NCBI RefSeq assembly: GCF_003428155.1
Contig: NZ_QLIR01000005.1
Location: forward strand, 84,312 to 116,311
Reading direction: 5' to 3'
Source of the DNA: Fastidiosibacter lacustris
GTDB taxonomy: Bacteria; Pseudomonadota; Gammaproteobacteria; Francisellales; Francisellaceae
DNA: 32,000 nt
A program made the translations under genes and the position numbers. The notes under the pieces were generated by a model, which was given only the letters and a program-made list of their open reading frames with translations, had not been told where the DNA came from and did not search any database. How positions within the stretch are numbered: the first letter of the stretch is position 1; the number at the start of each line of letters is the position of its first letter. Shown piece after piece: positions 2,399-26,419 of the stretch.

Positions 2399-3697
2399 CT
2401 ATCTAAACCATGATTTTAGTTTGTTATTAAGTGCATTATTTAGTGCTTTTTCAATAATAGGTTGTAAGTTTTGTTGTAATTTCTGTTGGTTGATTTTAGC
2501 ACTGAAATTTCCATTTTGGTAATTAAGGATATAGGGAATGTGTAAGCTAGGTTCGACTTGAACATTTAATAACAATGGATAATTAAAATATTCCTTGGAC
2601 ACATCAAACTTCCCTGTACCTGTTATGCTAAATTTAGGTGCAAGCCAACTGAGTCTCGTCGTTGTAATCATTGAGTCAACAAATTGACTCTGTACATTTA
2701 AAGTATTTAGCTGGGTATGTTGATTTGGATCTGCATTAAATTTATCGCTGTTTAAGATTGGCAATATTTGGTTTTTTAAGCTCTGAAAGGCGGTTTCAAT
2801 TTCATCACCACTATTTAGTGCAGTGAGTAGTTTGTGAGTTGAGTCAGCAATACTATTTAAATTGATTCCGTTAAGCTTAGCACTATTGGCGTGGATATTG
2901 ATATTACCTTGTAGTTTTTGAAGGTTATCTTGTTGAAGGTCGAAATTAATGTTGAATTGATTAAGTGTGAGTAAAAAACCTTTCATGTCAATAATTTTTT
3001 CAACAGCAATTTTTGGGGCTGAAAATTTACCTTCAGCAGAAAAATGAGGTTTTAGTTTTATTTGCTTGAGTGTACCTATTAGTTCTTCGCCATTAATATC
3101 AAGTGTAATGTTCTCAATATCAGTAACTTTATCGTTATCAGTGATATAAATTCTAGGAACTTTGAGAGACGTAGAGTGATTATTAATAGTAGTTTGTAAT
3201 GTAATATCATCAAACTGAATTGTGTTTGAATATGGATTGAGCGCCATTTGGAAGTTAAAATCATTAAATTCATTGACAAAGCTCCCTTTAATATTATATT
3301 TCTGGTTTTTCTCGAGGACGTTAAGTGTAGGAATTAAAAATTTTATTTTAGTACCAAGTTTAACTTGTCCTTGTTCAAGATCAAGTGACTTAATTGAGTT
3401 ATTGGGATTTATAATAAGGTCAATAAAATTAACTTTAATGGTACCTTGTTGCCAATGACTGGTGAGGATGTTGTTGTTAGTGTTAATTGTAATATTTTGC
3501 CCATCAAGTTGCATTAACCATAAGTTAAATGAAAGCCTGCCATCAATAAGGATATGAACATTGTTGTTCTGACTAAGTTTATTATTAACCCAGTTTTTGT
3601 AATCATTGGGATTAAAAATAAATTTCAACCAGATGAAAAATAGCAACAGAAGAAGCGTAATTGTAAGAAGGAGACTTAATATAAGTTTTTTAACCAT
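2399..3697 (-). CDS. AsmA-family envelope protein (short form)
   Basis: N-terminal membrane anchor MVKKLILSLLLTITLLLLLFFIWL followed by the NPNDYK motif (E. coli AsmA has NPNDFR at the same place). N/Q-rich beta-rich body. I prefer the ATG at 3697 (AAGGAA 5 nt upstream) over the track start at 3727. The stop lies 3 nt before the recG ATG. Confidence 0.75.
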   Translation of the reverse strand: MVKKLILSLLLTITLLLLLFFIWLKFIFNPNDYKNWVNNKLSQNNNVHILIDGRLSFNLWLMQLDGQNITINTNNNILTSHWQQGTIKVNFIDLIINPNNSIKSLDLEQGQVKLGTKIKFLIPTLNVLEKNQKYNIKGSFVNEFNDFNFQMALNPYSNTIQFDDITLQTTINNHSTSLKVPRIYITDNDKVTDIENITLDINGEELIGTLKQIKLKPHFSAEGKFSAPKIAVEKIIDMKGFLLTLNQFNINFDLQQDNLQKLQGNINIHANSAKLNGINLNSIADSTHKLLTALNSGDEIETAFQSLKNQILPILNSDKFNADPNQHTQLNTLNVQSQFVDSMITTTRLSWLAPKFSITGTGKFDVSKEYFNYPLLLNVQVEPSLHIPYILNYQNGNFSAKINQQKLQQNLQPIIEKALNNALNNKLKSWFR

Positions 3698-3817
3698 GGT
3701 TATTCCTTTATCGTCAACTTTCAGCATGAAATTAACAGAATATGTTTGGCATCATGCACTATGTTTTTTATGATAGTCTGAATTATTGACGAATATTGAG
3801 TTTACGCCAAGTTGATT

Positions 3818-5227: not shown

Positions 5228-5677
5228 ATGTCTAAGAAAAAAATCACTTTATCGAACAGGAAGCGTTTAAGTGAGTTACAGACTAAAGCGGTAAAAACAA
5301 ACGCAGATGTTCGTCGTGAACAGATTCAGTCTATGCGTGAAATGCATGTTATGCCTGAAGGGAAGCTTGAGCTTGCAATTGAGCAGATGGTTGCGGATGT
5401 TGTATTTGAGTTGAATAACTTATATCGCCAGTGGAGTCAGCCGCTTGATTATAATCGTTATCGGTATAGCCCAAATGAACGTAATAGAAAGCTATTGAAT
5501 GAGTTAAAGGTATTTTTAAATGAGATAGCGGATTGGCTTATGAGTAAAGGTATTCGTGGTGAGGAGTGCAGGGAAAGGTGTCAGGAAATTGTTGATCGGA
5601 TTTCTCAAGGTTTACGCATAGAAGGGATACCCGTTGGTCATTTACAGTTACATTCTGAAAAGAGACAGGAATTTTAA
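5228..5677 (+). CDS. Hypothetical 149-aa basic, all-helical protein (no family recognised)
   Basis: Long ORF in an otherwise tightly packed region, with the same codon style as its neighbours. The stop is 2 nt before the rlmB ATG. No recognisable motif. Confidence 0.5.
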   Translation: MSKKKITLSNRKRLSELQTKAVKTNADVRREQIQSMREMHVMPEGKLELAIEQMVADVVFELNNLYRQWSQPLDYNRYRYSPNERNRKLLNELKVFLNEIADWLMSKGIRGEECRERCQEIVDRISQGLRIEGIPVGHLQLHSEKRQEF

Positions 5678-7005: not shown

Positions 7006-7676
7006 TGAAGATGGATAGGCAACAAGCTTGGCGCGATGTGTTGGCAGAATATAAAAATAGCGAGCGCTTTCAAGATACGTTGGCATTTGTTGCAAATGAA
7101 CGTAAAAAAGGCAAAATAATTTTTCCACAACAACAAGATGTTTTTAATGCGTTTAAGCTGTGTTCATTAGAGAACTTAAAAGTTGTTATTTTAGGTCAGG
7201 ATCCCTATCACAACGTTGGACAGGCACATGGTTTGGCATTTTCAGTGCAAAAAAACGTGATCCCGCCACCCTCATTAGTTAATATTTATAAAGAGCTCAG
7301 TGCAGATATCAATATCAGCGTACCTCAACATGGAAACTTAAGTAATTGGGCAGCACAAGGTGTTTTTTTACTTAATACTGTTCTAACTGTAGAAGCGCAT
7401 AAAGCGCATTCACATGCCAATATCGGTTGGGAGGATTTTACCGATAATGTCATACATATTATTAATAAATATAAAGAGCATGTCGTTTTCATGCTGTGGG
7501 GAGCTCCTGCTCAAAGGAAATCAAGTTTAATTGATGGGAATAAACATCTGATACTAAAAGCGCCTCACCCATCACCATTATCGGCACATCGTGGTTTTTT
7601 TGGTTGTAAGCACTTTTCTCAAGCCAACCAATATTTAAAATTTCATGGAGTAGAACCAATAGATTGGCAGTTGTAG
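7005..7676 (+). CDS. ung: Uracil-DNA glycosylase (family 1)
   Basis: Near-colinear with E. coli Ung: [53 protein letters not shown]. The start overlaps the Sel1 stop (TAATG). Confidence 0.92.
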
Positions 7677-7683
7677 GTACTTT

Positions 7684-7712
7684 TTGATTTTTTTAATTTA
7701 TCAGATTATAAA
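7684..7712 (+). promoter_or_regulatory. Sigma70-like promoter candidate for the arg cluster
   Basis: TTGATT (7684-7689), 17 nt spacer, TATAAA (7707-7712). About 75 nt upstream of the GNAT::argG start. Confidence 0.3.
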
Positions 7713-7788
7713 AATAATGAATTTTATTTATTAATGATCTTTGGTTATCTTTTAAAACCTGTCCCTTAATAAAAAGCAGATTGATGAT

Positions 7789-9615
7789 ATGAAAATATCC
7801 AGTGTTAAAGTTGTAATATCAAATACTGAACATTGTTGTTTTGCAAAAGCAATATCACATGAAATTGCAGAAAGTGCCAAACAAAGAAAAACAGGTATAG
7901 CTATGCGCAGTGTAGATTACTTGCAGACTAAAATGCGTACTCAACATGCGGTGATTGCTATTGACACTGAAAATGAAGAAGTGGCAGGATTTTGCTATAT
8001 TGAGTCTTGGCAGGATAAAAGTTATGTGTCAAATTCAGGACTGATTGTTTTCCCGAAGTATCGCAGTTTAGGTCTAGCAAAAGCTCTTAAGGAAAAGGCT
8101 TTTGAGTTAGCGCGCTTGTATTATCCAAATGCAAGAATATTTGGCCTAACAACCAATCCTGTAGTGATGAAAATCAATTGTGAGCTTGGTTATCAGCCTA
8201 CATCTTTTGCAAAGCTCACGCATGACATGACTTTTTGGCAAGGTTGCCAAAGTTGTGTCAATTTTTCGATTTTGCAATCCAAAAATTATCAGAACTGCTT
8301 ATGTACAGGTATGCTTTATGAACCCAACAACCATAAACCAAAGGAGCAAAAAATGAAGGTCATAGTAGCCTTTAGTGGTGGCTTAGATACAAGCTTTTGT
8401 GTGAAGTATTTGCAACAAGAAAAAAATCTCGAAGTACATACGGTTACTGTAAATACAGGTGGCTTTTCCAAATTTGATCTAGCAGAAATTGAGAAAAGGG
8501 CATATCAATTGGGCGCAACGACTCACCAAAATATTGATGCAACAAATGATTTTTATAATCACTGTGTTAAATATTTAATTTTTGGGAATGTGCTTAAAAA
8601 TAATTGTTATCCGCTTTCTGTTAGTGCAGAGCGTGCGTTCCAATCGATGGTCATTGCTAACAAAGCAAACGAATTGGGTATCAATAAAATCGCTCACGGT
8701 TGCACAGGAGCAGGTAATGATCAAGTACGTTTTGATTTAATGTTCCATATCTTATGTTCGAATGTTGAGATTATTACTCCCATTCGCGATTTATCGTTAA
8801 CTCGCGCGCAAACACAAGCTTACCTTATTAAGCATGGAATTGAATGCTCAGACAAAACAAAAAAATACTCCATTAACAAAGGGCTTTGGGGGACGTCAAT
8901 AGGTGGTGTAGAAACACTTAGCTCACACTTGGCTTTACCTGAAGAAGCTTGGTCAAGTCAGATGACAAAGTCCTTAAGTGATGAAGAAAAGGTGAAGATT
9001 ACTTTCTTAAAAGGAGAACCAATTGCTTTAAATGATGAATTATCTAACCCTATACAGTTAATCAAAAAACTTAATGAACTTGCAAGTTGCTATGCCATTG
9101 GTCGTGATATTCACGTAGGCGATACCATTATTAACATCAAAGGTCGGGTTGGCTTTGAAGCACCAGCACCTATGGTTTTAATTAAGGCACATCATTGCCT
9201 AGAAAAGCATGTTTTAACAAAAGCGCAGTTAAAGCTAAAAGATCAGCTTGCCTGTACTTATGGTGAGATGGTACATGAAGGTCAGTTTATGGATCCTGCA
9301 TTACGTGATATTGAGAACTTTTTAAGCTCAACGCAACTACATGTTAGTGGCAATGTATTTATCAAGCTTAAGCCGTGGTATTTTACAATCACAGGTATTG
9401 AGTCAGATTATGATTTAATGCAGCAGCAAGGTGCACAATACGGTGAAGGAAACACAAGTTTTAGTGGTCAAGATGTAAGAGGGTTTAGTAAAATTTTAAG
9501 TAATCAGCTTGCAGCCTATCATCAGAAGTTGAAGAACAAGCAGAGTAACCAAACAACAAAATTGGTTACTAGTTCGACAGATAAAAAAGCTCACAATGCT
9601 CTATTGGTTAATTGA
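7789..9615 (+). CDS. argG: Fusion protein: N-terminal GNAT acyltransferase domain (aa 1-~185) plus argininosuccinate synthase (aa 189-608)
   Basis: A single uninterrupted 608-aa frame. The N-terminal part has a GNAT core (SGLIVFPKYRSLGLAKALKEKAFELA) and a Cys-rich tail. The C-terminal part starts MKVIVAFSGGLDTS (ATP pyrophosphatase P-loop of ArgG) and carries YSINKGLWGTSIGG. A perfect AAGGAG (8341-8346) sits 6 nt before the internal ATG at 8353. Confidence 0.85.
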   Translation: MKISSVKVVISNTEHCCFAKAISHEIAESAKQRKTGIAMRSVDYLQTKMRTQHAVIAIDTENEEVAGFCYIESWQDKSYVSNSGLIVFPKYRSLGLAKALKEKAFELARLYYPNARIFGLTTNPVVMKINCELGYQPTSFAKLTHDMTFWQGCQSCVNFSILQSKNYQNCLCTGMLYEPNNHKPKEQKMKVIVAFSGGLDTSFCVKYLQQEKNLEVHTVTVNTGGFSKFDLAEIEKRAYQLGATTHQNIDATNDFYNHCVKYLIFGNVLKNNCYPLSVSAERAFQSMVIANKANELGINKIAHGCTGAGNDQVRFDLMFHILCSNVEIITPIRDLSLTRAQTQAYLIKHGIECSDKTKKYSINKGLWGTSIGGVETLSSHLALPEEAWSSQMTKSLSDEEKVKITFLKGEPIALNDELSNPIQLIKKLNELASCYAIGRDIHVGDTIINIKGRVGFEAPAPMVLIKAHHCLEKHVLTKAQLKLKDQLACTYGEMVHEGQFMDPALRDIENFLSSTQLHVSGNVFIKLKPWYFTITGIESDYDLMQQQGAQYGEGNTSFSGQDVRGFSKILSNQLAAYHQKLKNKQSNQTTKLVTSSTDKKAHNALLVN

Positions 9616-9618
9616 AGA

Positions 9619-10596
9619 ATGAATATGATAAAAAACAAAAAAATAAAAGTAGGGATTATAGGAGGTGCTGGTTATACGGCAGGAGAATTATTACGTATCT
9701 TAACCTACCACCCTCACGTTAATATAGACTTTGTACACAGTGATTCAAATCAAGGTAAACCAATAAAAAATGTACATCGTGATTTTTATTTAATTGATGA
9801 AAAACGCGTGTTTGATCATATGCTTAATCCAGAAGTTGACGTTGCTTTTTTGTGTGTTGGTCACAATCAGTCAAAGTCAGTCTTAAAAAACGTAATATTT
9901 TCAAATACCACTAAACTTATTGATTTAAGTCAAGATCATCGTAATAGTTCAGAGAATCCAGAATTTGTATATGGGCTTGCCGATGTTTATCCAAATGAAA
10001 TCAAGCAAGCAACTAAAATTGCCAATCCTGGTTGTTTTGCAACAGCCATTCAGCTTGGTGTAATGCCATTTTGCCAATATGTGCAAGATGATGTTCATGT
10101 CACAGCGATTACAGGTTCAACAGGGGCTGGCGCTAAGTTAAGTGATACTTCCCATTTTAGTTGGCGAGCCAATAACCTTTCAGTTTACAAAAGCTTTGAA
10201 CATCAGCATATGAATGAGATATGCCGAGGTTTAGGCTTAAATAGAAATCAGTTGCAATTTGTTCCGATGCGAGGTGCATTTACCCGTGGTATATTGGCAT
10301 CGATTTATTTTAAATCATCATTAAATGGGATAGAAGCAAGAAACTTGGCACAAGCCTTTTACCACAAGGTCGAATTTGTTAAGGTGAGTGAAGAAGAATC
10401 AGGTCCAGATTTAAAAAGTGTGGTCAATACCAATTACTGTTTGCTATCAGTTAAAAAGTATGGTGATTATTTGCATATTATTAGTGTGATTGATAATTTA
10501 ATTAAAGGTGCGGTAGGGCAAGCCGTACAAAATATGAATTTAATGTTTGGCTTTGATATAAGCTGTGGTTTGACATTGAAGCCAATTGCTTTTTAA
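9619..10596 (+). CDS. argC: N-acyl-gamma-glutamyl-phosphate reductase
   Basis: N-terminal Rossmann motif KVGIIGGAGYTAGELLR, catalytic-Cys motif ANPGCFATA, C-terminal DNLIKGAVGQAVQNMNLMFG. Confidence 0.9.
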   Translation: MNMIKNKKIKVGIIGGAGYTAGELLRILTYHPHVNIDFVHSDSNQGKPIKNVHRDFYLIDEKRVFDHMLNPEVDVAFLCVGHNQSKSVLKNVIFSNTTKLIDLSQDHRNSSENPEFVYGLADVYPNEIKQATKIANPGCFATAIQLGVMPFCQYVQDDVHVTAITGSTGAGAKLSDTSHFSWRANNLSVYKSFEHQHMNEICRGLGLNRNQLQFVPMRGAFTRGILASIYFKSSLNGIEARNLAQAFYHKVEFVKVSEEESGPDLKSVVNTNYCLLSVKKYGDYLHIISVIDNLIKGAVGQAVQNMNLMFGFDISCGLTLKPIAF

Positions 10597-10616
10597 GTTG
10601 AAATTAGGAGAAGAGC

Positions 10617-11597
10617 ATGCAACATTATCTTAGTATTAAAGATATAGACAATATTAAAAATGCAATTGAATCGTGTATTGAGATTAAAAAATCACCTTTT
10701 ACTAAGCTACAGCTTGCAAACAATAAAACATTAGGCATCATCTTTCTCAATCCTAGCTTGCGTACCAAAATTTCAACGATTAAGGCTGCACAAAACATTG
10801 GATTAAACGTGTTACCGATTGATGTTAACAATGGCTGGTCACTGGAATTTAGTGAAGGCGTTGTGATGGATACAAATAAACCAGAGCATATCAAGGAAGC
10901 CGCACAAGTTATTGCAAAATATTGCGATATGGTTGCTATTCGTGCTTTTGCTAAGCTTATGGATAAGGAAGAAGATTATAAAGAGCAAATATTTGCCAGC
11001 TTTAAAAAATATACAAATTGCCCGCTTATAAATTTAGAGTCTACCTTACGCCATCCATTGCAAAGCTTGGCAGATATTTTAACAATTGAAGAGTATAAAA
11101 ATATACAAAGCTTAAAAAAGCTTAAAGTAGTGCTAAGTTGGGCTCCGCATGTTAATCCATTACCACATGCTGTCGCAAATTCATTTGCTGAGAGTATGCA
11201 GTTGATGGATTATGAGTTTGTTATCACGCATCCTAAAGGCTATGAGCTGGATCCTGAGTTTACAAAAAATGCCTCAGTTTGTTACGATCAAGATGAAGCA
11301 TTAAAAGGAGCGGATTTTATTTATGTTAAAAATTGGTCAAGTACTAAATATTATGGCAAGGTGACCAATACAGATCAAAGTTGGATGATCAATAAAAACA
11401 AACTTAAAAACGCGCCTTATGCCAAAGTGATGCACTGCTTACCTGTTCGTAGAAATTTAGTGATTGCAGATGATGTATTGGATTCTGAGCAATCAATAGT
11501 TATTGATCAAGCAGAAAATCGCCTTTATGCAGCGCAATATGTGCTGTCAGAAATCATTAAAACGCTTGATAAAAAAGAAAATAGGCTTAAATCTTGA
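10617..11597 (+). CDS. argF: N-acyl-L-ornithine carbamoyltransferase (ArgF'-type; predicted N-succinylornithine specific)
   Basis: Transcarbamylase motifs PSLRT, HPLQSLAD and HCLPVRRN. The N-terminal 110 aa closely parallel my recollection of the Bacteroides fragilis SOTCase (IKKxxF..NKTL..IFxNxSLRT...DxxKPEH...RAFA). Pro89 in DTNKPEH occupies the specificity position. Strong SD AGGAG before the ATG. Confidence 0.8.
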   Translation: MQHYLSIKDIDNIKNAIESCIEIKKSPFTKLQLANNKTLGIIFLNPSLRTKISTIKAAQNIGLNVLPIDVNNGWSLEFSEGVVMDTNKPEHIKEAAQVIAKYCDMVAIRAFAKLMDKEEDYKEQIFASFKKYTNCPLINLESTLRHPLQSLADILTIEEYKNIQSLKKLKVVLSWAPHVNPLPHAVANSFAESMQLMDYEFVITHPKGYELDPEFTKNASVCYDQDEALKGADFIYVKNWSSTKYYGKVTNTDQSWMINKNKLKNAPYAKVMHCLPVRRNLVIADDVLDSEQSIVIDQAENRLYAAQYVLSEIIKTLDKKENRLKS

Positions 11598-11682
11598 GAA
11601 ATAGAATAATGTAATTCCACTTTACTTATCATATATGACAGATTTATAGAGATATCATGTAAAACCTGGAAAATTTTGGAAG

Positions 11683-12510
11683 ATGAAAAATCAAATCAAT
11701 AAAATAAAAATCATTAAAATTGGTGGTCGTGTTATGGATGACACACAGCAATTAGAACAGTTCTTTGGTGCATTATCTAAGCAAAACGTACCTTTTATTT
11801 TGGTGCATGGTGGGGGTGATAAGGTCAATAAACTAGTTGAAAAATTTCACATTACACCACAGTTTGTTGATGGTCGACGTATAACCGACAATAAAAGCTT
11901 GGAAGCTGTTGTGATGATGCTTGCTGGATGGATAAATAAAGACATCGTGGCAAGTTTACAAGCAAAGGGTCTCAATGCATGGGGTTTAACGGGAGTGGAT
12001 GCAAATTTAGTCATGTGTGATAAACGTTGCATGCAAAAGTATGATTTTGGTTTTGTTGGTGATGTAAAGTCGGTTAACGTATCACCTTTGTTAATGCTAT
12101 TAGAACACGGTATAACGCCAGTTTTATCCCCCATTACCCACGATGGTAAAGGGCAGTTATTAAACACTAATGCCGATACCTTTGCCGCAAGCATTGCAAT
12201 AAACTTGGCCATCATTCAAGGTATTGAGATTGAGCTTTATTATTGTTTAGATTTACAAGGTGTGTATGAAAACCTTGATCAGCCTGATTCGTTGATTGCA
12301 GTATTGGATGAAGATAAGTTTAAAGACTGCCATGCTCAAGGCATGATTAAAGAAGGTATGATTCCTAAGCTTCAAAATTGCTTTAGTGCTTTAGAGCGGG
12401 GGGTTAGTAAAATCTATGTGAGTAATGCTACGCAAATAATTCAACTGTTGATAGGCTTGAAGTTTAAAGGTACAGCAATCGTTAAAAAAGAGAAGTCTAT
12501 ACATGTCTAA
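11683..12510 (+). CDS. argB: N-acylglutamate kinase (amino-acid kinase family)
   Basis: IKIGGRVMDD, VHGGGDKVN, NTNADTFAASIA motifs. About 275 aa. Preceded by the only sizeable gap (85 bp) within the arg cluster. Confidence 0.85.
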   Translation: MKNQINKIKIIKIGGRVMDDTQQLEQFFGALSKQNVPFILVHGGGDKVNKLVEKFHITPQFVDGRRITDNKSLEAVVMMLAGWINKDIVASLQAKGLNAWGLTGVDANLVMCDKRCMQKYDFGFVGDVKSVNVSPLLMLLEHGITPVLSPITHDGKGQLLNTNADTFAASIAINLAIIQGIEIELYYCLDLQGVYENLDQPDSLIAVLDEDKFKDCHAQGMIKEGMIPKLQNCFSALERGVSKIYVSNATQIIQLLIGLKFKGTAIVKKEKSIHV

Positions 12511-13600
12511 GATGGTGTTAGAAAATAAAGAAATGCTTAAGGTGAAATGTGATGCTTTAGCCCTACTTAAAGCACTTATTGCTACTCCGTCGCCTTCGAA
12601 ACAAGAGAATAAAACAGCATGCTTATTGCAATCATGGTTAAATGACAAAGGTGTTGATGCCACTTTAATTGGCAATAATGTTTGTGCCAAAAATAAATTT
12701 TTTGATACGTATAAACCATCGATTTTGCTTGTTTCGCATCATGATACGGTGCCCCCCTCGAAAGATTATACAATTGATCCTTACACTCCTTTCATAAAAG
12801 AAGGGAAGCTTTATGGGTTAGGCTCAAATGATGCAGGTGGACCACTGGTGAGTCTGTTAAGTGCTTTTGTTTATTTTTATGATGAGGAGCATTTGCCATT
12901 TAATTTAATGTTTTGTGCAGCAGCAGAGGAGGAGATTTCAGGTAGAAATGGGTTGGAGTTGGCGTTACCATTTTTTGGTGAAATCAATTTTGCAATTGTC
13001 GGCGAGCCCACAAGTATGGCTTTAGCGATTAGTGAAAAAGGATTAATGGTTTGTGATTGTATAGCGTATGGTAAATCAGGACATACGGCAAGAGACGAAG
13101 GTGAAAACGCGATTTTAAAAGCAATTAAAGATATACAATGGTTGACAAACTATAAATTTGACAAAGTATCTCCCAGTTTAGGGGAGATTAAAATGAGTGC
13201 TACCATGATTGAAGCTGGTATTAAGCATAACATTGTGCCTAATAAATGTCATTTTGTTGTCGATGTACGTACAACAGATGCTTATAGTAATGAGGAAGTG
13301 CTAAAAATTATGCAGCAAAATATGCAATCAGAAGTACAGGCGCGTTCAACTCGAATAAAACCAAGTGCAACACCACTGAATCATCCTGTAGTAAAAGCAT
13401 TGCTAGCACAAGGTGTCACAACGTATGGTTCTCCCACGACTTCAGATCAAGCAATTTTGAGTTGTCCTAGTGTTAAATTTTCACCAGGAGATTCAGCACG
13501 CTCGCATACGGCGAATGAATTTATTTATATTCAACAAATTAATGAAGGAATTGCTTTTTTCATAGATTTTTTTAGTACAATGAGGAATATGAAATGGTAG
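12503..13600 (+). CDS. argE: M20-family deacylase (ArgE-like; acetylornithine deacetylase / possible succinyl-citrulline desuccinylase)
   Basis: Metal-ligand motifs SHHDTV, GSNDAGG and AAEEEISG, plus a dimerisation-domain insert. Overlaps argB by 8 nt and argH by 7 nt. Confidence 0.75.
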   Translation: MSKMVLENKEMLKVKCDALALLKALIATPSPSKQENKTACLLQSWLNDKGVDATLIGNNVCAKNKFFDTYKPSILLVSHHDTVPPSKDYTIDPYTPFIKEGKLYGLGSNDAGGPLVSLLSAFVYFYDEEHLPFNLMFCAAAEEEISGRNGLELALPFFGEINFAIVGEPTSMALAISEKGLMVCDCIAYGKSGHTARDEGENAILKAIKDIQWLTNYKFDKVSPSLGEIKMSATMIEAGIKHNIVPNKCHFVVDVRTTDAYSNEEVLKIMQQNMQSEVQARSTRIKPSATPLNHPVVKALLAQGVTTYGSPTTSDQAILSCPSVKFSPGDSARSHTANEFIYIQQINEGIAFFIDFFSTMRNMKW

Positions 13601-15033
13601 AAAAAATAGTAGATAACCAAAAGCAAAAACTATGGGGTGGGCGTTTTAGTGAAGATAACAATCCGTTATTTGTACAATTTAATGCATCGCTTCGTTTTGA
13701 CTACCGTTTGCTAGCTTATGATATTAAAGCGAGTAAAGTTTTTACACATGGACTTTATGATATTAGTGTATTAACACAAGTTGAGCTAAGTGCACTCCAT
13801 CAAGCGCTAGATGAAATTGCAAAAGATAACCAGCAAAACCCCAAGTTGATTCAAGAAGCAATTTGGGAAGGGGTAGAAGACGTACATACTTTTGTTGAGC
13901 AAAGTTTAGTGGAGAAGTTAGGTGATTTAGCGTATAAAGCCAATACGAGTAGATCGCGTAATGAACAAGTTTCATGTGCGACAAGATTATGGGCGTTGGA
14001 TCACATTGATCAAGTTGTTGATCTTATTCAAAATTTGCAACACGATTTGTGTCAACAAGCACAGACCAACATTGATGTTCCACTCATGGGGTATACCCAT
14101 TTACAGCAGGCACAACCTATTACATGGGGTCATTATTTCTTGTCTTTTTATGAAATGCTCAAGCGTGATATTGAAAGACTATCAGATGTCAAAAAACGTG
14201 TGGACATTTCACCTTTAGGATTAGGTGCAATTGCAGGTAATTCGTGGCAATTAGATCGTTATAAAATAGCAAAACAATTAGGGTTTAGTGAAGTTTCAAA
14301 AAATAGCTTAGATGCTGTGAGTGATCGTGATTATATCATCGAATTTATGGCGGCATTGAGTCTTGTTAGTGTACATTTAAGCCGCCTTGCTGAAGATATG
14401 ATTATCTATTCAACAACTGAATTTGATTTACTTGAGATGAGCGATGAAGTAACAACGGGTTCCTCACTTATGCCGCAAAAGAAAAATCCAGATGCAATGG
14501 AACTTGTACGTGGTAAAACAGGACGTATCTATGGTCATTTAATTGCATTATTAACGACGATAAAAGCGTTACCTTCAGGTTATAACAAAGATCTACAAGA
14601 AGACAAAGAAGCATTGTTTGGTGCTGTAGATACAATAATTGATATATTACGGATTACCAAGATTACTATTGCGAGTTTAAAGATTAAAAAAAATAAGGAT
14701 TATAAGCATAGCTTTTGTGTTGCCACCGAACTTGCAGATTACCTTGCTAAAAAAGGTGTACCATTTAGAAAAGCTCATCATATAGTAGGTAAAATTACAC
14801 GCTTTGCATTGAATGAAGGTCGTCCACTTAAAGAGCTAACATTAACCGAATATCAGCGGTTTTTTCCAAACGTTGAACAAGATATTTTTCAAGTGATAAC
14901 GATTGATTTTGCAATCAATAGTAAAAAGGTAATCGGTGGGACAGCAGTTGAGGAAGTTAAGAAACAGCTAGATGTTATAAACTCAAGTATGAGCGTTGAT
15001 TCAGCAAAGGTCGGTATTCAATACACTTTCTAA
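13594..15033 (+). CDS. argH: Argininosuccinate lyase
   Basis: KLWGGRF N-terminus, fumarate-lyase signature GSSLMPQKKNPD, YNKDLQEDKE. Confidence 0.92.
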   Translation: MVEKIVDNQKQKLWGGRFSEDNNPLFVQFNASLRFDYRLLAYDIKASKVFTHGLYDISVLTQVELSALHQALDEIAKDNQQNPKLIQEAIWEGVEDVHTFVEQSLVEKLGDLAYKANTSRSRNEQVSCATRLWALDHIDQVVDLIQNLQHDLCQQAQTNIDVPLMGYTHLQQAQPITWGHYFLSFYEMLKRDIERLSDVKKRVDISPLGLGAIAGNSWQLDRYKIAKQLGFSEVSKNSLDAVSDRDYIIEFMAALSLVSVHLSRLAEDMIIYSTTEFDLLEMSDEVTTGSSLMPQKKNPDAMELVRGKTGRIYGHLIALLTTIKALPSGYNKDLQEDKEALFGAVDTIIDILRITKITIASLKIKKNKDYKHSFCVATELADYLAKKGVPFRKAHHIVGKITRFALNEGRPLKELTLTEYQRFFPNVEQDIFQVITIDFAINSKKVIGGTAVEEVKKQLDVINSSMSVDSAKVGIQYTF

Positions 15034-15073
15034 TTCCAAATATCAATAATTTAAGGTGTTTAGTTGCAATGTT

Positions 15074-15082
15074 TGATATAAT
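15074..15082 (+). promoter_or_regulatory. Extended -10 promoter candidate for gyrB
   Basis: TGATATAAT (TGn + TATAAT) 40 nt upstream of the gyrB ATG. No good -35, which is consistent with an extended -10 type. Confidence 0.3.
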
Positions 15083-15121
15083 TCCGCGTGATTTGTTTTT
15101 AAGTAAAAATGGAGCGACTGA

Positions 15122-17539
<2,418 letters not shown>

Positions 17540-24801: not shown

Positions 24802-25021
24802 AGGAAACAAAAATCACTTACTTCACATGTATTCCTTAAGGAGTATCACAACGTTGGAAACGCAACACGCAGAAGATTGAGCGTAAATCTTTAAACGTTT
24901 AGAACGAGGATAAAGCGCCTTGTGAGGAAAACTATCTGTTTCTCAAAAAGTGAGCTAATGCGTGATGCATGCACTGTAATTGGTCTTTATATCAACCAAA
25001 TTGAATGGGGACGGGGTATAT

Positions 25022-26419
25022 ATGAATAACAAAGTAAAACGCTACAAAAATTTAATACTTAGCGTTGTTGGTATTATATTTTTATTGTTATCAGGTTGTG
25101 CCACTTTTTCAGCATCCTATCCTAAAAAAATATCTGAAGTTAAAGTTGATTTAGCTAAAGGAGATGCTAAAGCAGCACAGAAATCTTTTAGTAACCAGTT
25201 TGGAGATAATCCAACAGAAGATAATCTATACTTATTGGAGCAGGCACGTTTAGCACAATTAAACGATAACGTTGAGCGATCAAAAAAAGGCTATCAAGCC
25301 GTTATCCAAACAGTAGCGACCAATAAAATGGCTGCAAAAGTCCAGGTGTCAAAAGTTTTACAAAATATGGGAGCAGTATTAACCAATGATCGAGGATTAC
25401 CTTTTTCTACACCTGATTATGCGATGACATTTTTATATCCATATCAAGCGCTAAATTATTTATCACAAAATGATTTAAGTGGCGCTTTAGTTGCCATTCG
25501 TCAGTTAAGCAATGCTCAATATTGGACATATCAACAAAAATTAATGGTGGAGGATATGCAAAGTAAATATCAAAAAGATACTGCTAAGGTCGATATTGAT
25601 GAAGAAAACTTAGGACTTAAAAAATCTAAAGAAATTAATGAGATGTTTAGTTCAGTAAAGGATGCTACCAATGCGTATGAAAATGGATTTGGTTATTATT
25701 TAGCAAGCATCTTGTATGAAGCGTTTGATGAGAATTACAATAATGCGTTTATATCCATTAAGGATGCTAAACGAGTGCTTCCAGATAATCCTTACGTTCT
25801 ACGCACATATCAAGAAATAGAGCGTGGCTTTAATGGAGGAAGTGCTTATGAAAATGGCAAAGGGCGTTTGGTTGTAATTTATGAACAAGGTTTTGTAACT
25901 CCTAGAGAGGCGATTAAACTACCATTATTTTTAGGCAAGCTTGGTTTACAAGAAGTAGCGGTCGCTTACTACCCATCCAAATATACGTTGTTACCAGAAA
26001 AAAGCATATATGTTGCTCAAAATGATCGGATTCAAGATCGTGCTCAGACAGCGTTGCTCGTCAATACAACTCAAATGGCAACTAAATCGTTGACAGAGGA
26101 GTACCCTGTGATTATCACGCGTGAAGTGATTCGGTTGGTAGTAAAGTCACTTGCCACTTATGAGGCAACTAACCAGGCTGGTGGCTGGGGTTTATTAGCT
26201 GGCTCAATCTATAGTTTTGTCACTGCACAAGCAGATGAGCGCAGTTGGCTTTTGTTGCCAAATAATATCCAACTCTATGAAAATCAATTTAAGGCAGGTA
26301 ACTATACAATTGATCTTGGTAAAAAGCAGCAGAACGTTGAAATAAAAGCCAATAAGACAACCTTGATTTGGTTTGTTAATATAGATGACTTTAATAAGGT
26401 TTATCATTTTATTTTGTAA
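25022..26419 (+). CDS. Large lipoprotein with N-terminal TPR-like region (COG3014-like uncharacterised family, from memory)
   Basis: ATG at 25022 gives MNNKVKRYKNLILSVVGIIFLLLSGC with lipobox LSGC. The N-terminal helical repeat region is followed by a mixed alpha/beta domain. Family assignment is tentative. Confidence 0.5.
   Translation: MNNKVKRYKNLILSVVGIIFLLLSGCATFSASYPKKISEVKVDLAKGDAKAAQKSFSNQFGDNPTEDNLYLLEQARLAQLNDNVERSKKGYQAVIQTVATNKMAAKVQVSKVLQNMGAVLTNDRGLPFSTPDYAMTFLYPYQALNYLSQNDLSGALVAIRQLSNAQYWTYQQKLMVEDMQSKYQKDTAKVDIDEENLGLKKSKEINEMFSSVKDATNAYENGFGYYLASILYEAFDENYNNAFISIKDAKRVLPDNPYVLRTYQEIERGFNGGSAYENGKGRLVVIYEQGFVTPREAIKLPLFLGKLGLQEVAVAYYPSKYTLLPEKSIYVAQNDRIQDRAQTALLVNTTQMATKSLTEEYPVIITREVIRLVVKSLATYEATNQAGGWGLLAGSIYSFVTAQADERSWLLLPNNIQLYENQFKAGNYTIDLGKKQQNVEIKANKTTLIWFVNIDDFNKVYHFIL

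Follow-up and report, generated by a model that had tools for sequence, protein, structure and literature searches.

Fusions of N-acetylglutamate synthase (NAGS) with other enzymes of arginine biosynthesis have been described in several bacteria. They include ArgH(A), an argininosuccinate lyase with a short NAGS domain that is found in marine gammaproteobacteria of the Alteromonas/Vibrio group (PMC1382215, PMC4490483), the bifunctional NAGS/K of Xanthomonas (PMC1865377), and the NAGS-ArgC protein of Haliangium (PMC4490483). The ArgA2 family, in turn, consists of GNATs that carry out step 1 of arginine synthesis in Bacteroidota and Calditrichota, where their genes directly precede argG, and includes the stand-alone proteins BT3761 and Cabys_1732. 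BT3761 forms, together with BT3760, the argA2-argG gene pair of Bacteroides thetaiotaomicron (PMC7311316, PMC8121099); it is needed for growth without arginine and is repressed by arginine (PMC8121099), and it is cofit with the arg genes (PMC8121099, PMC7311316, PMC9026213). Cabys_1732 of Caldithrix abyssi was reported as a newly characterized NAGS isoform (PMC5317091). Here, an ArgA2-type GNAT domain that continues in frame into argininosuccinate synthase (ArgG) is described in the gammaproteobacterium Fastidiosibacter lacustris. The gene is located on contig NZ_QLIR01000005.1, within a stretch of 32,000 nucleotides (positions 84,312 to 116,311 of the forward strand), which is referred to below as the window and whose own numbering is used throughout. 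The evidence leans toward a long-conserved bifunctional gene that would yield two products, a 68-kDa ArgA2-ArgG fusion and a free 47-kDa ArgG translated from an internal Shine-Dalgarno (SD) element and ATG codon.

In this protein, as in ArgH(A), a short glutamate acyltransferase of the GNAT type is combined with an oligomeric enzyme that acts late in the same pathway, and the two steps are nonconsecutive. In contrast to ArgH(A), the partner is ArgG rather than ArgH, the GNAT domain is N-terminal rather than C-terminal and comes from another family that shows only fold similarity (16 to 17% identity) to the classical and short NAGS, the chemistry is probably of the succinyl type, and an internal start site is conserved. 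NAGS/K and NAGS-ArgC also combine the first-step acyltransferase with another arginine-pathway enzyme, but they use a vertebrate-like or classical NAT domain and join adjacent steps. According to the original prediction, made from the DNA of the window alone, a fusion of such an acyltransferase to ArgG is not known to have been described; no description of an ArgA2-ArgG fusion was found in the literature searched, and a text search of the most relevant papers was likewise without mention of it. The new features are ArgG as the fusion partner, the involvement of the ArgA2-type GNAT family, at least two independent origins, and the conserved nested start.

Modules of the fusion protein

The fusion gene (positions 7789 to 9615, plus strand) begins with ATG and consists of 608 codons uninterrupted by a stop, with a calculated product mass of 68.0 kDa. 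It encodes the GNAT domain (amino acids [aa] 1 to 179; 7789 to 8325), an interdomain linker, NNHKPKEQK (aa 180 to 188; 8326 to 8352), which in relatives differs in length and sequence, and an ArgG module of 420 aa (8353 to 9615), whose calculated mass from Met189 is 46.7 kDa. Pfam detects the Acetyltransf_1 domain (PF00583) at aa 50 to 110, with a weak score that is above the threshold (23.7 bits; cutoff, 20.7 bits), followed by Arginosuc_synth (PF00764) at aa 190 to 352 and Arginosuc_syn_C (PF20979) at aa 360 to 573. The ArgG module scores 289.2 bits against TIGR00032 (argG; cutoff, 268.2 bits), matches the solved ArgG structures 4U7J and 1J1Z, and contains the ATP-binding motif SGGLDTS (invariant S196 to S202). 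The argininosuccinate synthase formed by the C-terminal 420 residues is complete, and the predicted in-frame junction of a GNAT domain and an entire ArgG, with no stop between them, is thus confirmed. In an NCBIfam scan, residues 1 to 188 are not covered by any model. The full-length AlphaFold model (pLDDT, 84; pTM, 0.60) shows both modules with confidence; residues 183 to 186 of the linker have pLDDT values below 50, and the tail of the ArgG module (aa 584 to 608) is disordered and of low confidence.

Residues 1 to 188 alone match 7,330 proteins (best E value, ~1e-66), and the best of these matches are stand-alone GNATs of 195 to 240 aa from Bacteroidota and Balneolota (50 to 62% identity); identity to the proteins of two Calditrichia loci (L028 and L041) is 53%. 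A family alignment of 61 sequences has 46 invariant columns, and the domain matches every one of them, including R92, G95, and four cysteines. The arginine and glycine belong to the acyl-coenzyme A (acyl-CoA) motif R92-S-L-G95-L-A97, which fits the pattern R/Q-x-x-G-x-G/A. The cysteines, C153 and C156 in a GCxSC motif and C170 and C172 in a CLC motif (8245 to 8304, plus strand), are conserved without exception among the ArgA2 proteins examined, both fused and stand-alone, and point to a possible structural metal site. In its sequence, its full set of invariant residues, and its place before argG, the domain is like the stand-alone members of the ArgA2 family. It differs from them in that it has neither a stop codon nor the extra basic C-terminal tail of 25 to 50 aa, which all of the fusions lack, and runs on into ArgG instead; its gammaproteobacterial host sets it apart from the stand-alone ArgA2 of Bacteroidota.

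A profile of the N-terminal domain was used to analyze 80 genome loci, of which 2 are fused and 78 unfused. An argG homolog is located downstream on the same strand in 77 of the 78 unfused loci, and the remaining locus stops at a contig edge; in 75 of these 77 pairs, the gap between argA2 and argG is −19 to +223 nucleotides (nt). The homologs are tied to arg clusters. The N-terminal domain belongs to the ArgA2 family (BT3761/Cabys_1732) and would acylate glutamate to start the pathway. It weighs against this assignment that the link to BT3761 and Cabys_1732 runs via operon position and homologs from the same orders and phylum.

The AlphaFold2 model of the N-terminal domain (pLDDT, 89) has the GNAT topology and matches 577 GNAT structures in the PDB at E values of ≤1e-3. 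Its top Foldseek matches are the NAT domain of the Neisseria NAGS (2R8V) and the Mycobacterium tuberculosis ArgA/Rv2747 (5YGE and 5YO2), with TM scores of 0.62 to 0.65 at only 16 to 17% identity. A phmmer search of the PDB at E values of ≤10 retrieved only generic GNATs, PA4794 among them, and no NAGS. Because the similarity is limited to the fold and there is no sequence-level NAGS match, the domain, which would work like a short NAGS, stands outside the short NAGS family of ArgH(A), to which the original prediction had compared it, and belongs with the separate ArgA2 family. The generic character of the sequence matches to solved structures, together with the fact that fused members are known from sequence alone, might also fit a regulatory or otherwise unrelated acyltransferase, the substrate of which could be ArgG or another small molecule, for instance. 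However, the family is required for arginine prototrophy of B. thetaiotaomicron and is arginine repressed (PMC8121099), its leading position in arg operons is conserved, and the best structural matches are NAGS enzymes, all of which makes a role outside the pathway very improbable.

Distribution and origin of the fusion

A search for the same domain architecture, which had been proposed with the original prediction, retrieved ~24 fused clusters among 5.8 billion clustered proteins (582 to 630 aa, 93 to 98% query coverage, and 48 to 71% identity). These include Cysteiniphilum halobium, Cysteiniphilum sp. QT6929, Facilibium subflavum, and metagenome-assembled genomes (MAGs) of “Francisellaceae” and Calditrichota. 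A genome scan shows that Caedibacter taeniospiralis also carries the fusion; Caedibacter, Cysteiniphilum, and Facilibium are all members of the Fastidiosibacteraceae. The named homologs are labeled “argininosuccinate synthase,” “GNAT family N-acetyltransferase,” or “hypothetical protein.” In a public collection, the identical fusion protein is found on 2 contigs, and on 10 contigs of nearer relatives, the fusion is the first gene of the same operon, fusion-argC-(argD)-argF'-argB-argE. An exhaustive HMMER pass over 1.84 billion representatives at 50% identity found the full architecture in only 2 of them. The fusion is rare but not unique.

The recurrence of full-length fused homologs bears on the concern that an indel or a missed stop codon had joined two genes during sequencing or assembly. 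Nothing beyond the general possibility speaks for such an artifact, and it is excluded, since many independent projects have yielded the same in-frame junction, from isolates as well as MAGs. A frameshift is seen in a Caedibacter-like metagenome contig (L096, 275 to 2108), where the gene is split into ORFs (open reading frames) at 275 to 643 and 672 to 2108, but it is located inside the GNAT part and not at the junction; it could be a sequencing error or reflect a pseudogenized N-terminal domain.

The gammaproteobacterial fusions, which come from Caedibacter, Cysteiniphilum, Facilibium, and a number of uncultured lineages, share 55 to 73% identity in the GNAT domain and 65 to 73% identity in ArgG. 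In neighbor-joining trees of 96 GNAT and ArgG pairs with 200 bootstraps, they form a clan in 178 to 200 of the 200 replicates. In contrast, all fusions together form a clan in only 0 to 1 of 200 replicates, and a single origin of all of them is rejected. A second fused group is interspersed with unfused sequences, and the domains of the window protein are no closer to this group (47% and 55% identity) than to the unfused Bacteroidota (52% and 55%). This pattern shows that the adjacent argA2-argG pair was fused on at least two independent occasions. The original prediction had offered a recent fusion of two adjacent genes as one explanation of the locus. The adjacent origin is supported by the GNAT gene lying directly upstream of argG in all but one of the unfused loci, whereas the recent date is contradicted by the wide clade and by saturation of the 4-fold sites, at which the identity of the window to other sequences is 0.25 to 0.41, at or near the 0.26 to 0.31 expected at saturation.

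In the two Calditrichia MAGs mentioned above, argA2 and argG are separate genes that overlap by ~19 nt in different frames (1759 to 1793 in L028 and ~3170 to 3199 in L041), and a single indel would fuse them. Other rare fusions of these modules include ArgR, with both repressor domains, joined to an ArgA2-like GNAT (P0355); ArgG with a C-terminal GNAT, that is, in the reverse order, in a different ArgG lineage with 34% identity (P0331); ArgG with an MGS-like domain (P0345); and ArgG with an ArgH fragment (P0389).

The internal start site

In-frame nested genes with an internal ribosome-binding site (RBS) include Bacillus subtilis lysC, which encodes the alpha and beta subunits of aspartokinase II, and infB, clpB, and cheA of Escherichia coli. 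The fusion gene is similar to these in being a single ORF with a conserved internal SD element and start codon. It differs from them in that its two products are predicted and in that the extra part of its long form is an entire enzyme in its own right, not a regulatory or N-terminal domain.

The junction reads CCA AAG GAG CAA AAA ATG AAG GTC. The AAGGAG element noted in the original prediction is confirmed at positions 8341 to 8346 (plus strand), where it is formed by the linker codons AAG GAG and is separated by a 6-nt spacer from an in-frame ATG (8353 to 8355, plus strand). This codon specifies Met189, which is codon 1 of ArgG, and represents a candidate second initiation site. Among the 198 in-frame internal ATGs of the 26 long ORFs in the window, it is the only one with AGGAG or GGAGG located 4 to 16 nt upstream. 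With an anti-SD duplex energy of −7.9 kcal/mol, it surpasses 24 of the 26 ORF starts, among them the start of the fusion itself at 7789, which reaches only −1.8 kcal/mol. Around the internal site, the mRNA has less structure than its shuffled counterparts (z = +1.64). The SD motif at the junction is more than a chance occurrence. SD usage in the window is generally weak, with a median of −3.05 kcal/mol over the 26 ORF starts, 2 of which reach −7.9 kcal/mol. A sigma-70 scan detected no plus-strand promoter-like site at 7789 to 8353 and thus gave no hint of an internal promoter.

Comparison of 11 loci of the gammaproteobacterial clade shows ATG at ArgG codon 1 in 9 of them and GTG in the other 2, in which GTG accounts for 10% and 34% of the Val codons, respectively. 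All 11 have an SD-like purine-rich element (AAGGAG, AAGGAGG, AGGGAG, AAGGAA, AAGGTG, or AGAGG) 5 to 10 nt upstream of this codon. A metagenome scan adds one more lineage (L094) and the frameshifted L096, whose junction is intact; both have ATG at ArgG codon 1 and keep the SD features. The linker residues before ArgG vary (KEQK, RKQQ, REQS, EVSR, KEEK, KETK, KVNK, and KTNQ), as does the linker length, by up to ~30 residues. In the Cysteiniphilum fusions P0003 and P0004 (L082 and L083), low-complexity Q/K/N-rich inserts of 20 to 30 residues are found just upstream of the conserved SD element and ATG. The trinucleotide AGG occupies positions −11 to −9 in 9 of 10 lineages, where it is encoded by different codon pairs (AAG-GAG, AGG-AAA, AGG-GAG, GAG-GTC, AAG-GAA, and AAG-GTG) that specify different residue pairs (KE, RK, RE, EV, and KV). 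The background frequency of AGG in this phase is 2.0% of the codon junctions of these genes and 7.7% after K/R/E codons, which gives a probability of ~1e-9 for at least 9 of 10. Since the 4-fold sites are saturated, shared descent cannot explain the identity of the SD nucleotides.

The second fused group provides a point of comparison: at the equivalent codon, 4 of its genes have GAT, AGA, GAA, or AAG, with anti-SD free energies (ΔG) of +1.0 to −3.5, so that Met is not structurally required at this position. The original prediction had left a choice between a functional internal start and a fossil one. In 62 unfused argG starts, mostly from Bacteroidota, there is essentially no SD element (median ΔG, −0.15), and 0 of the 62 reach −7.6. 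The view of the element as a fossil of a Bacteroidota-type RBS is rejected on these grounds, and the SD element of the fusion is therefore not simply inherited from such an operon. The alternative, a locus that gives both the fusion and free ArgG, has strong comparative support. Within the gammaproteobacterial clade, the SD element and start codon are conserved at the nucleotide level, and the combination of a conserved in-frame start codon with an SD element at functional spacing is the one by which nested in-frame genes are recognized; from this, we infer actual internal initiation.

Several observations weigh against such initiation. An internal start is evidently dispensable in the second fused group, the per-locus P values for synonymous recoding are modest (0.02 to 0.51), K/E/R-rich linkers are purine-rich by nature, and the SD element is weak in some lineages (ΔG, −4.9 to −5.6). 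In addition, the AGG register and the trinucleotide itself were picked after inspection of the data, the lineages share ancestry, and the existence of two products in all of these organisms is deduced purely from their DNA. The first three of these points would fit a gene that makes only the 68-kDa protein, in which the Met/Val codon and the SD-like element would be left over from the argG start that existed before the fusion or would be by-products of a K/E/R-rich linker. Such a gene is, however, unlikely: although 4-fold sites are saturated between lineages, AGG is still in register in 9 of 10 of them and a start codon is present in all lineages examined; both non-ATG cases are GTG, which is a minority of the Val codons in those loci; and the linker is otherwise free to vary in length and sequence. 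A second option is that the element, without any initiation, serves as an internal anti-SD pause site that slows ribosomes at the boundary between the domains and gives the GNAT domain time to fold ahead of the emergence of ArgG. Its location exactly in the interdomain linker would suit this role, as conservation at the nucleotide level would suit any RNA-level function; nonetheless, pausing leaves the constant ATG or GTG codon 6 to 10 nt downstream unexplained, the second fused group does without the element, and SD-mediated pausing is itself disputed, which together make this option improbable.

Operon, chemistry, and role of the fusion

The fusion heads an arginine operon of the Bacteroidota type, argA2G-argC-argF'-argB-argE'-argH, in which the genes 3' of the fusion are tightly packed on the same (plus) strand. 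They are argC (9619 to 10596; TIGR01850, 275 bits); argF', of the N-succinylornithine transcarbamylase (SOTCase) type (10617 to 11597); argB, for N-acylglutamate kinase (11683 to 12510; TIGR00761, 196 bits); a gene for an M20 deacylase of the ArgE/DapE family (12503 to 13600; TIGR01910, 152 bits, which is under the cutoff of that model); and argH, for argininosuccinate lyase (13594 to 15033; TIGR00838, 562 bits). The overlaps of 8 nt between argB and the argE-like gene (12503 to 12510) and 7 nt between the latter and argH (13594 to 13600) are consistent with translational coupling in an operon. The fusion is preceded by genes for uracil-DNA glycosylase, RlmB, and RecG, and argH is followed by gyrB.

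ArgF' scores 342 bits against the SOTCase of Bacteroides fragilis (1JS1/2FG6) but only 173 bits against the N-acetylornithine transcarbamylase (AOTCase) of Xanthomonas campestris. The residue at position 90 of the B. fragilis enzyme is reported to decide between succinyl and acetyl specificity (Shi et al. 2007, as summarized in 10.1101/2024.10.14.618325). A SOTCase has Pro (or Ala, Ser, or Val) at this position, which corresponds to Glu92 of the X. campestris enzyme, and ArgF' has Pro89 there (10881 to 10883, in NKPEH): its KPEH aligns with KPEH of 1JS1, as opposed to KEEH of the P90E mutant 2G7M. The Bacteroidota-type arginine operon uses succinylated intermediates (PMC7311316), and the operon in the window is predicted to be of this kind. 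Given this succinylornithine-type ArgF', the N-terminal domain probably takes succinyl-CoA as its acyl donor, which would make the domain an N-succinylglutamate synthase, and the M20 deacylase is a candidate N-succinylcitrulline desuccinylase. Two considerations weigh against this chemistry: the choice of the acyl donor comes down to one residue of ArgF', and Cabys_1732 was reported as an acetyltransferase and not a succinyltransferase (PMC5317091). ArgF' also scores just under the cutoff of the NCBIfam model for N-acetylornithine carbamoyltransferase (277 versus 288). As its closest solved relative and the specificity proline indicate a succinylornithine enzyme, automatic annotation is likely to misname it. 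The ArgA2 protein and the succinyl-type pathway probably entered the Gammaproteobacteria by horizontal transfer.

The arg cluster of the window (9619 to 15033) has no argD aminotransferase gene; in several relatives (among L083, L084, L089, and L090), argD is located between argC and argF' or argB. In some fused loci of the second group, no argF' is found in the retrieved part of the cluster. A scan of the window (G+C content, 35.5%) for ARG boxes (ArgR operators) gave 20 matches, compared with 40 expected by chance, and none was usable. Scans of positions 7400 to 15200 for sigma-70 promoters and terminators gave counts at or below the shuffled expectation. Elsewhere in the window, the ORFs at 2399 to 3727 (minus strand, 442 aa), 5228 to 5677 (plus strand, 149 aa), and 24980 to 26419 (plus strand, 479 aa) have no Pfam match, and the first two have no NCBIfam match either.

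The fusion arose from an ancestral pair of adjacent argA2 and argG genes, with loss of the basic tail and stop codon of the stand-alone acyltransferase. Ribosomes loading at position 7789, with its weak SD element, would make the 68-kDa ArgA2-ArgG, whereas those loading at 8341 to 8355 would make the 47-kDa ArgG alone. The acyltransferase would commit glutamate to the pathway, probably as N-succinylglutamate, and ArgG would carry out the penultimate step. With the internal start, the dosage of ArgG would be released from the 1:1 ratio of a plain fusion, allowing independent and higher ArgG levels, and mixed ArgG oligomers might form with the acyltransferase on only some of the subunits. The physical link between steps 1 and 7 that had been envisaged at the outset is real as far as the fusion itself is concerned. 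Substrate channeling between the domains, however, is rejected by the logic of the pathway, since the two steps are nonconsecutive and share no common intermediate. Likelier benefits would be coregulation, or the stabilization or oligomerization of the small GNAT through its attachment to the ArgG oligomer, which would stand in for the lost tail. As a more tentative proposal, the weak upstream start may provide a small amount of N-succinylglutamate synthase tethered to ArgG, and the stronger, selectively maintained internal start may provide the bulk of free ArgG; upon coassembly, the ArgG oligomer would become a scaffold for the substoichiometric first-step enzyme in place of the stand-alone tail. 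Through such a scaffold, the activity of the first step might become linked to the state of the penultimate enzyme.

These observations have consequences for genome annotation. Fusions of 580 to 630 aa are named simply “argininosuccinate synthase” by NCBI, with no model over residues 1 to 188. Metabolic reconstructions will therefore report the ArgA step as missing in the Fastidiosibacteraceae and their relatives, even though the enzyme is present. The locus widens the range of the ArgA2 family, and of the Bacteroidota-style arginine pathway of the succinyl type, to the Gammaproteobacteria. ArgG also becomes the fourth partner among the arginine enzymes to which glutamate acyltransferases have repeatedly been fused. 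The independent origins of these fusions support the idea that short acyltransferases gain from an oligomeric partner. Finally, the conserved internal SD element and start codon offer a testable case of a fusion that may keep the expression of one module independent, which bears on how gene fusions handle unequal demand for two activities.

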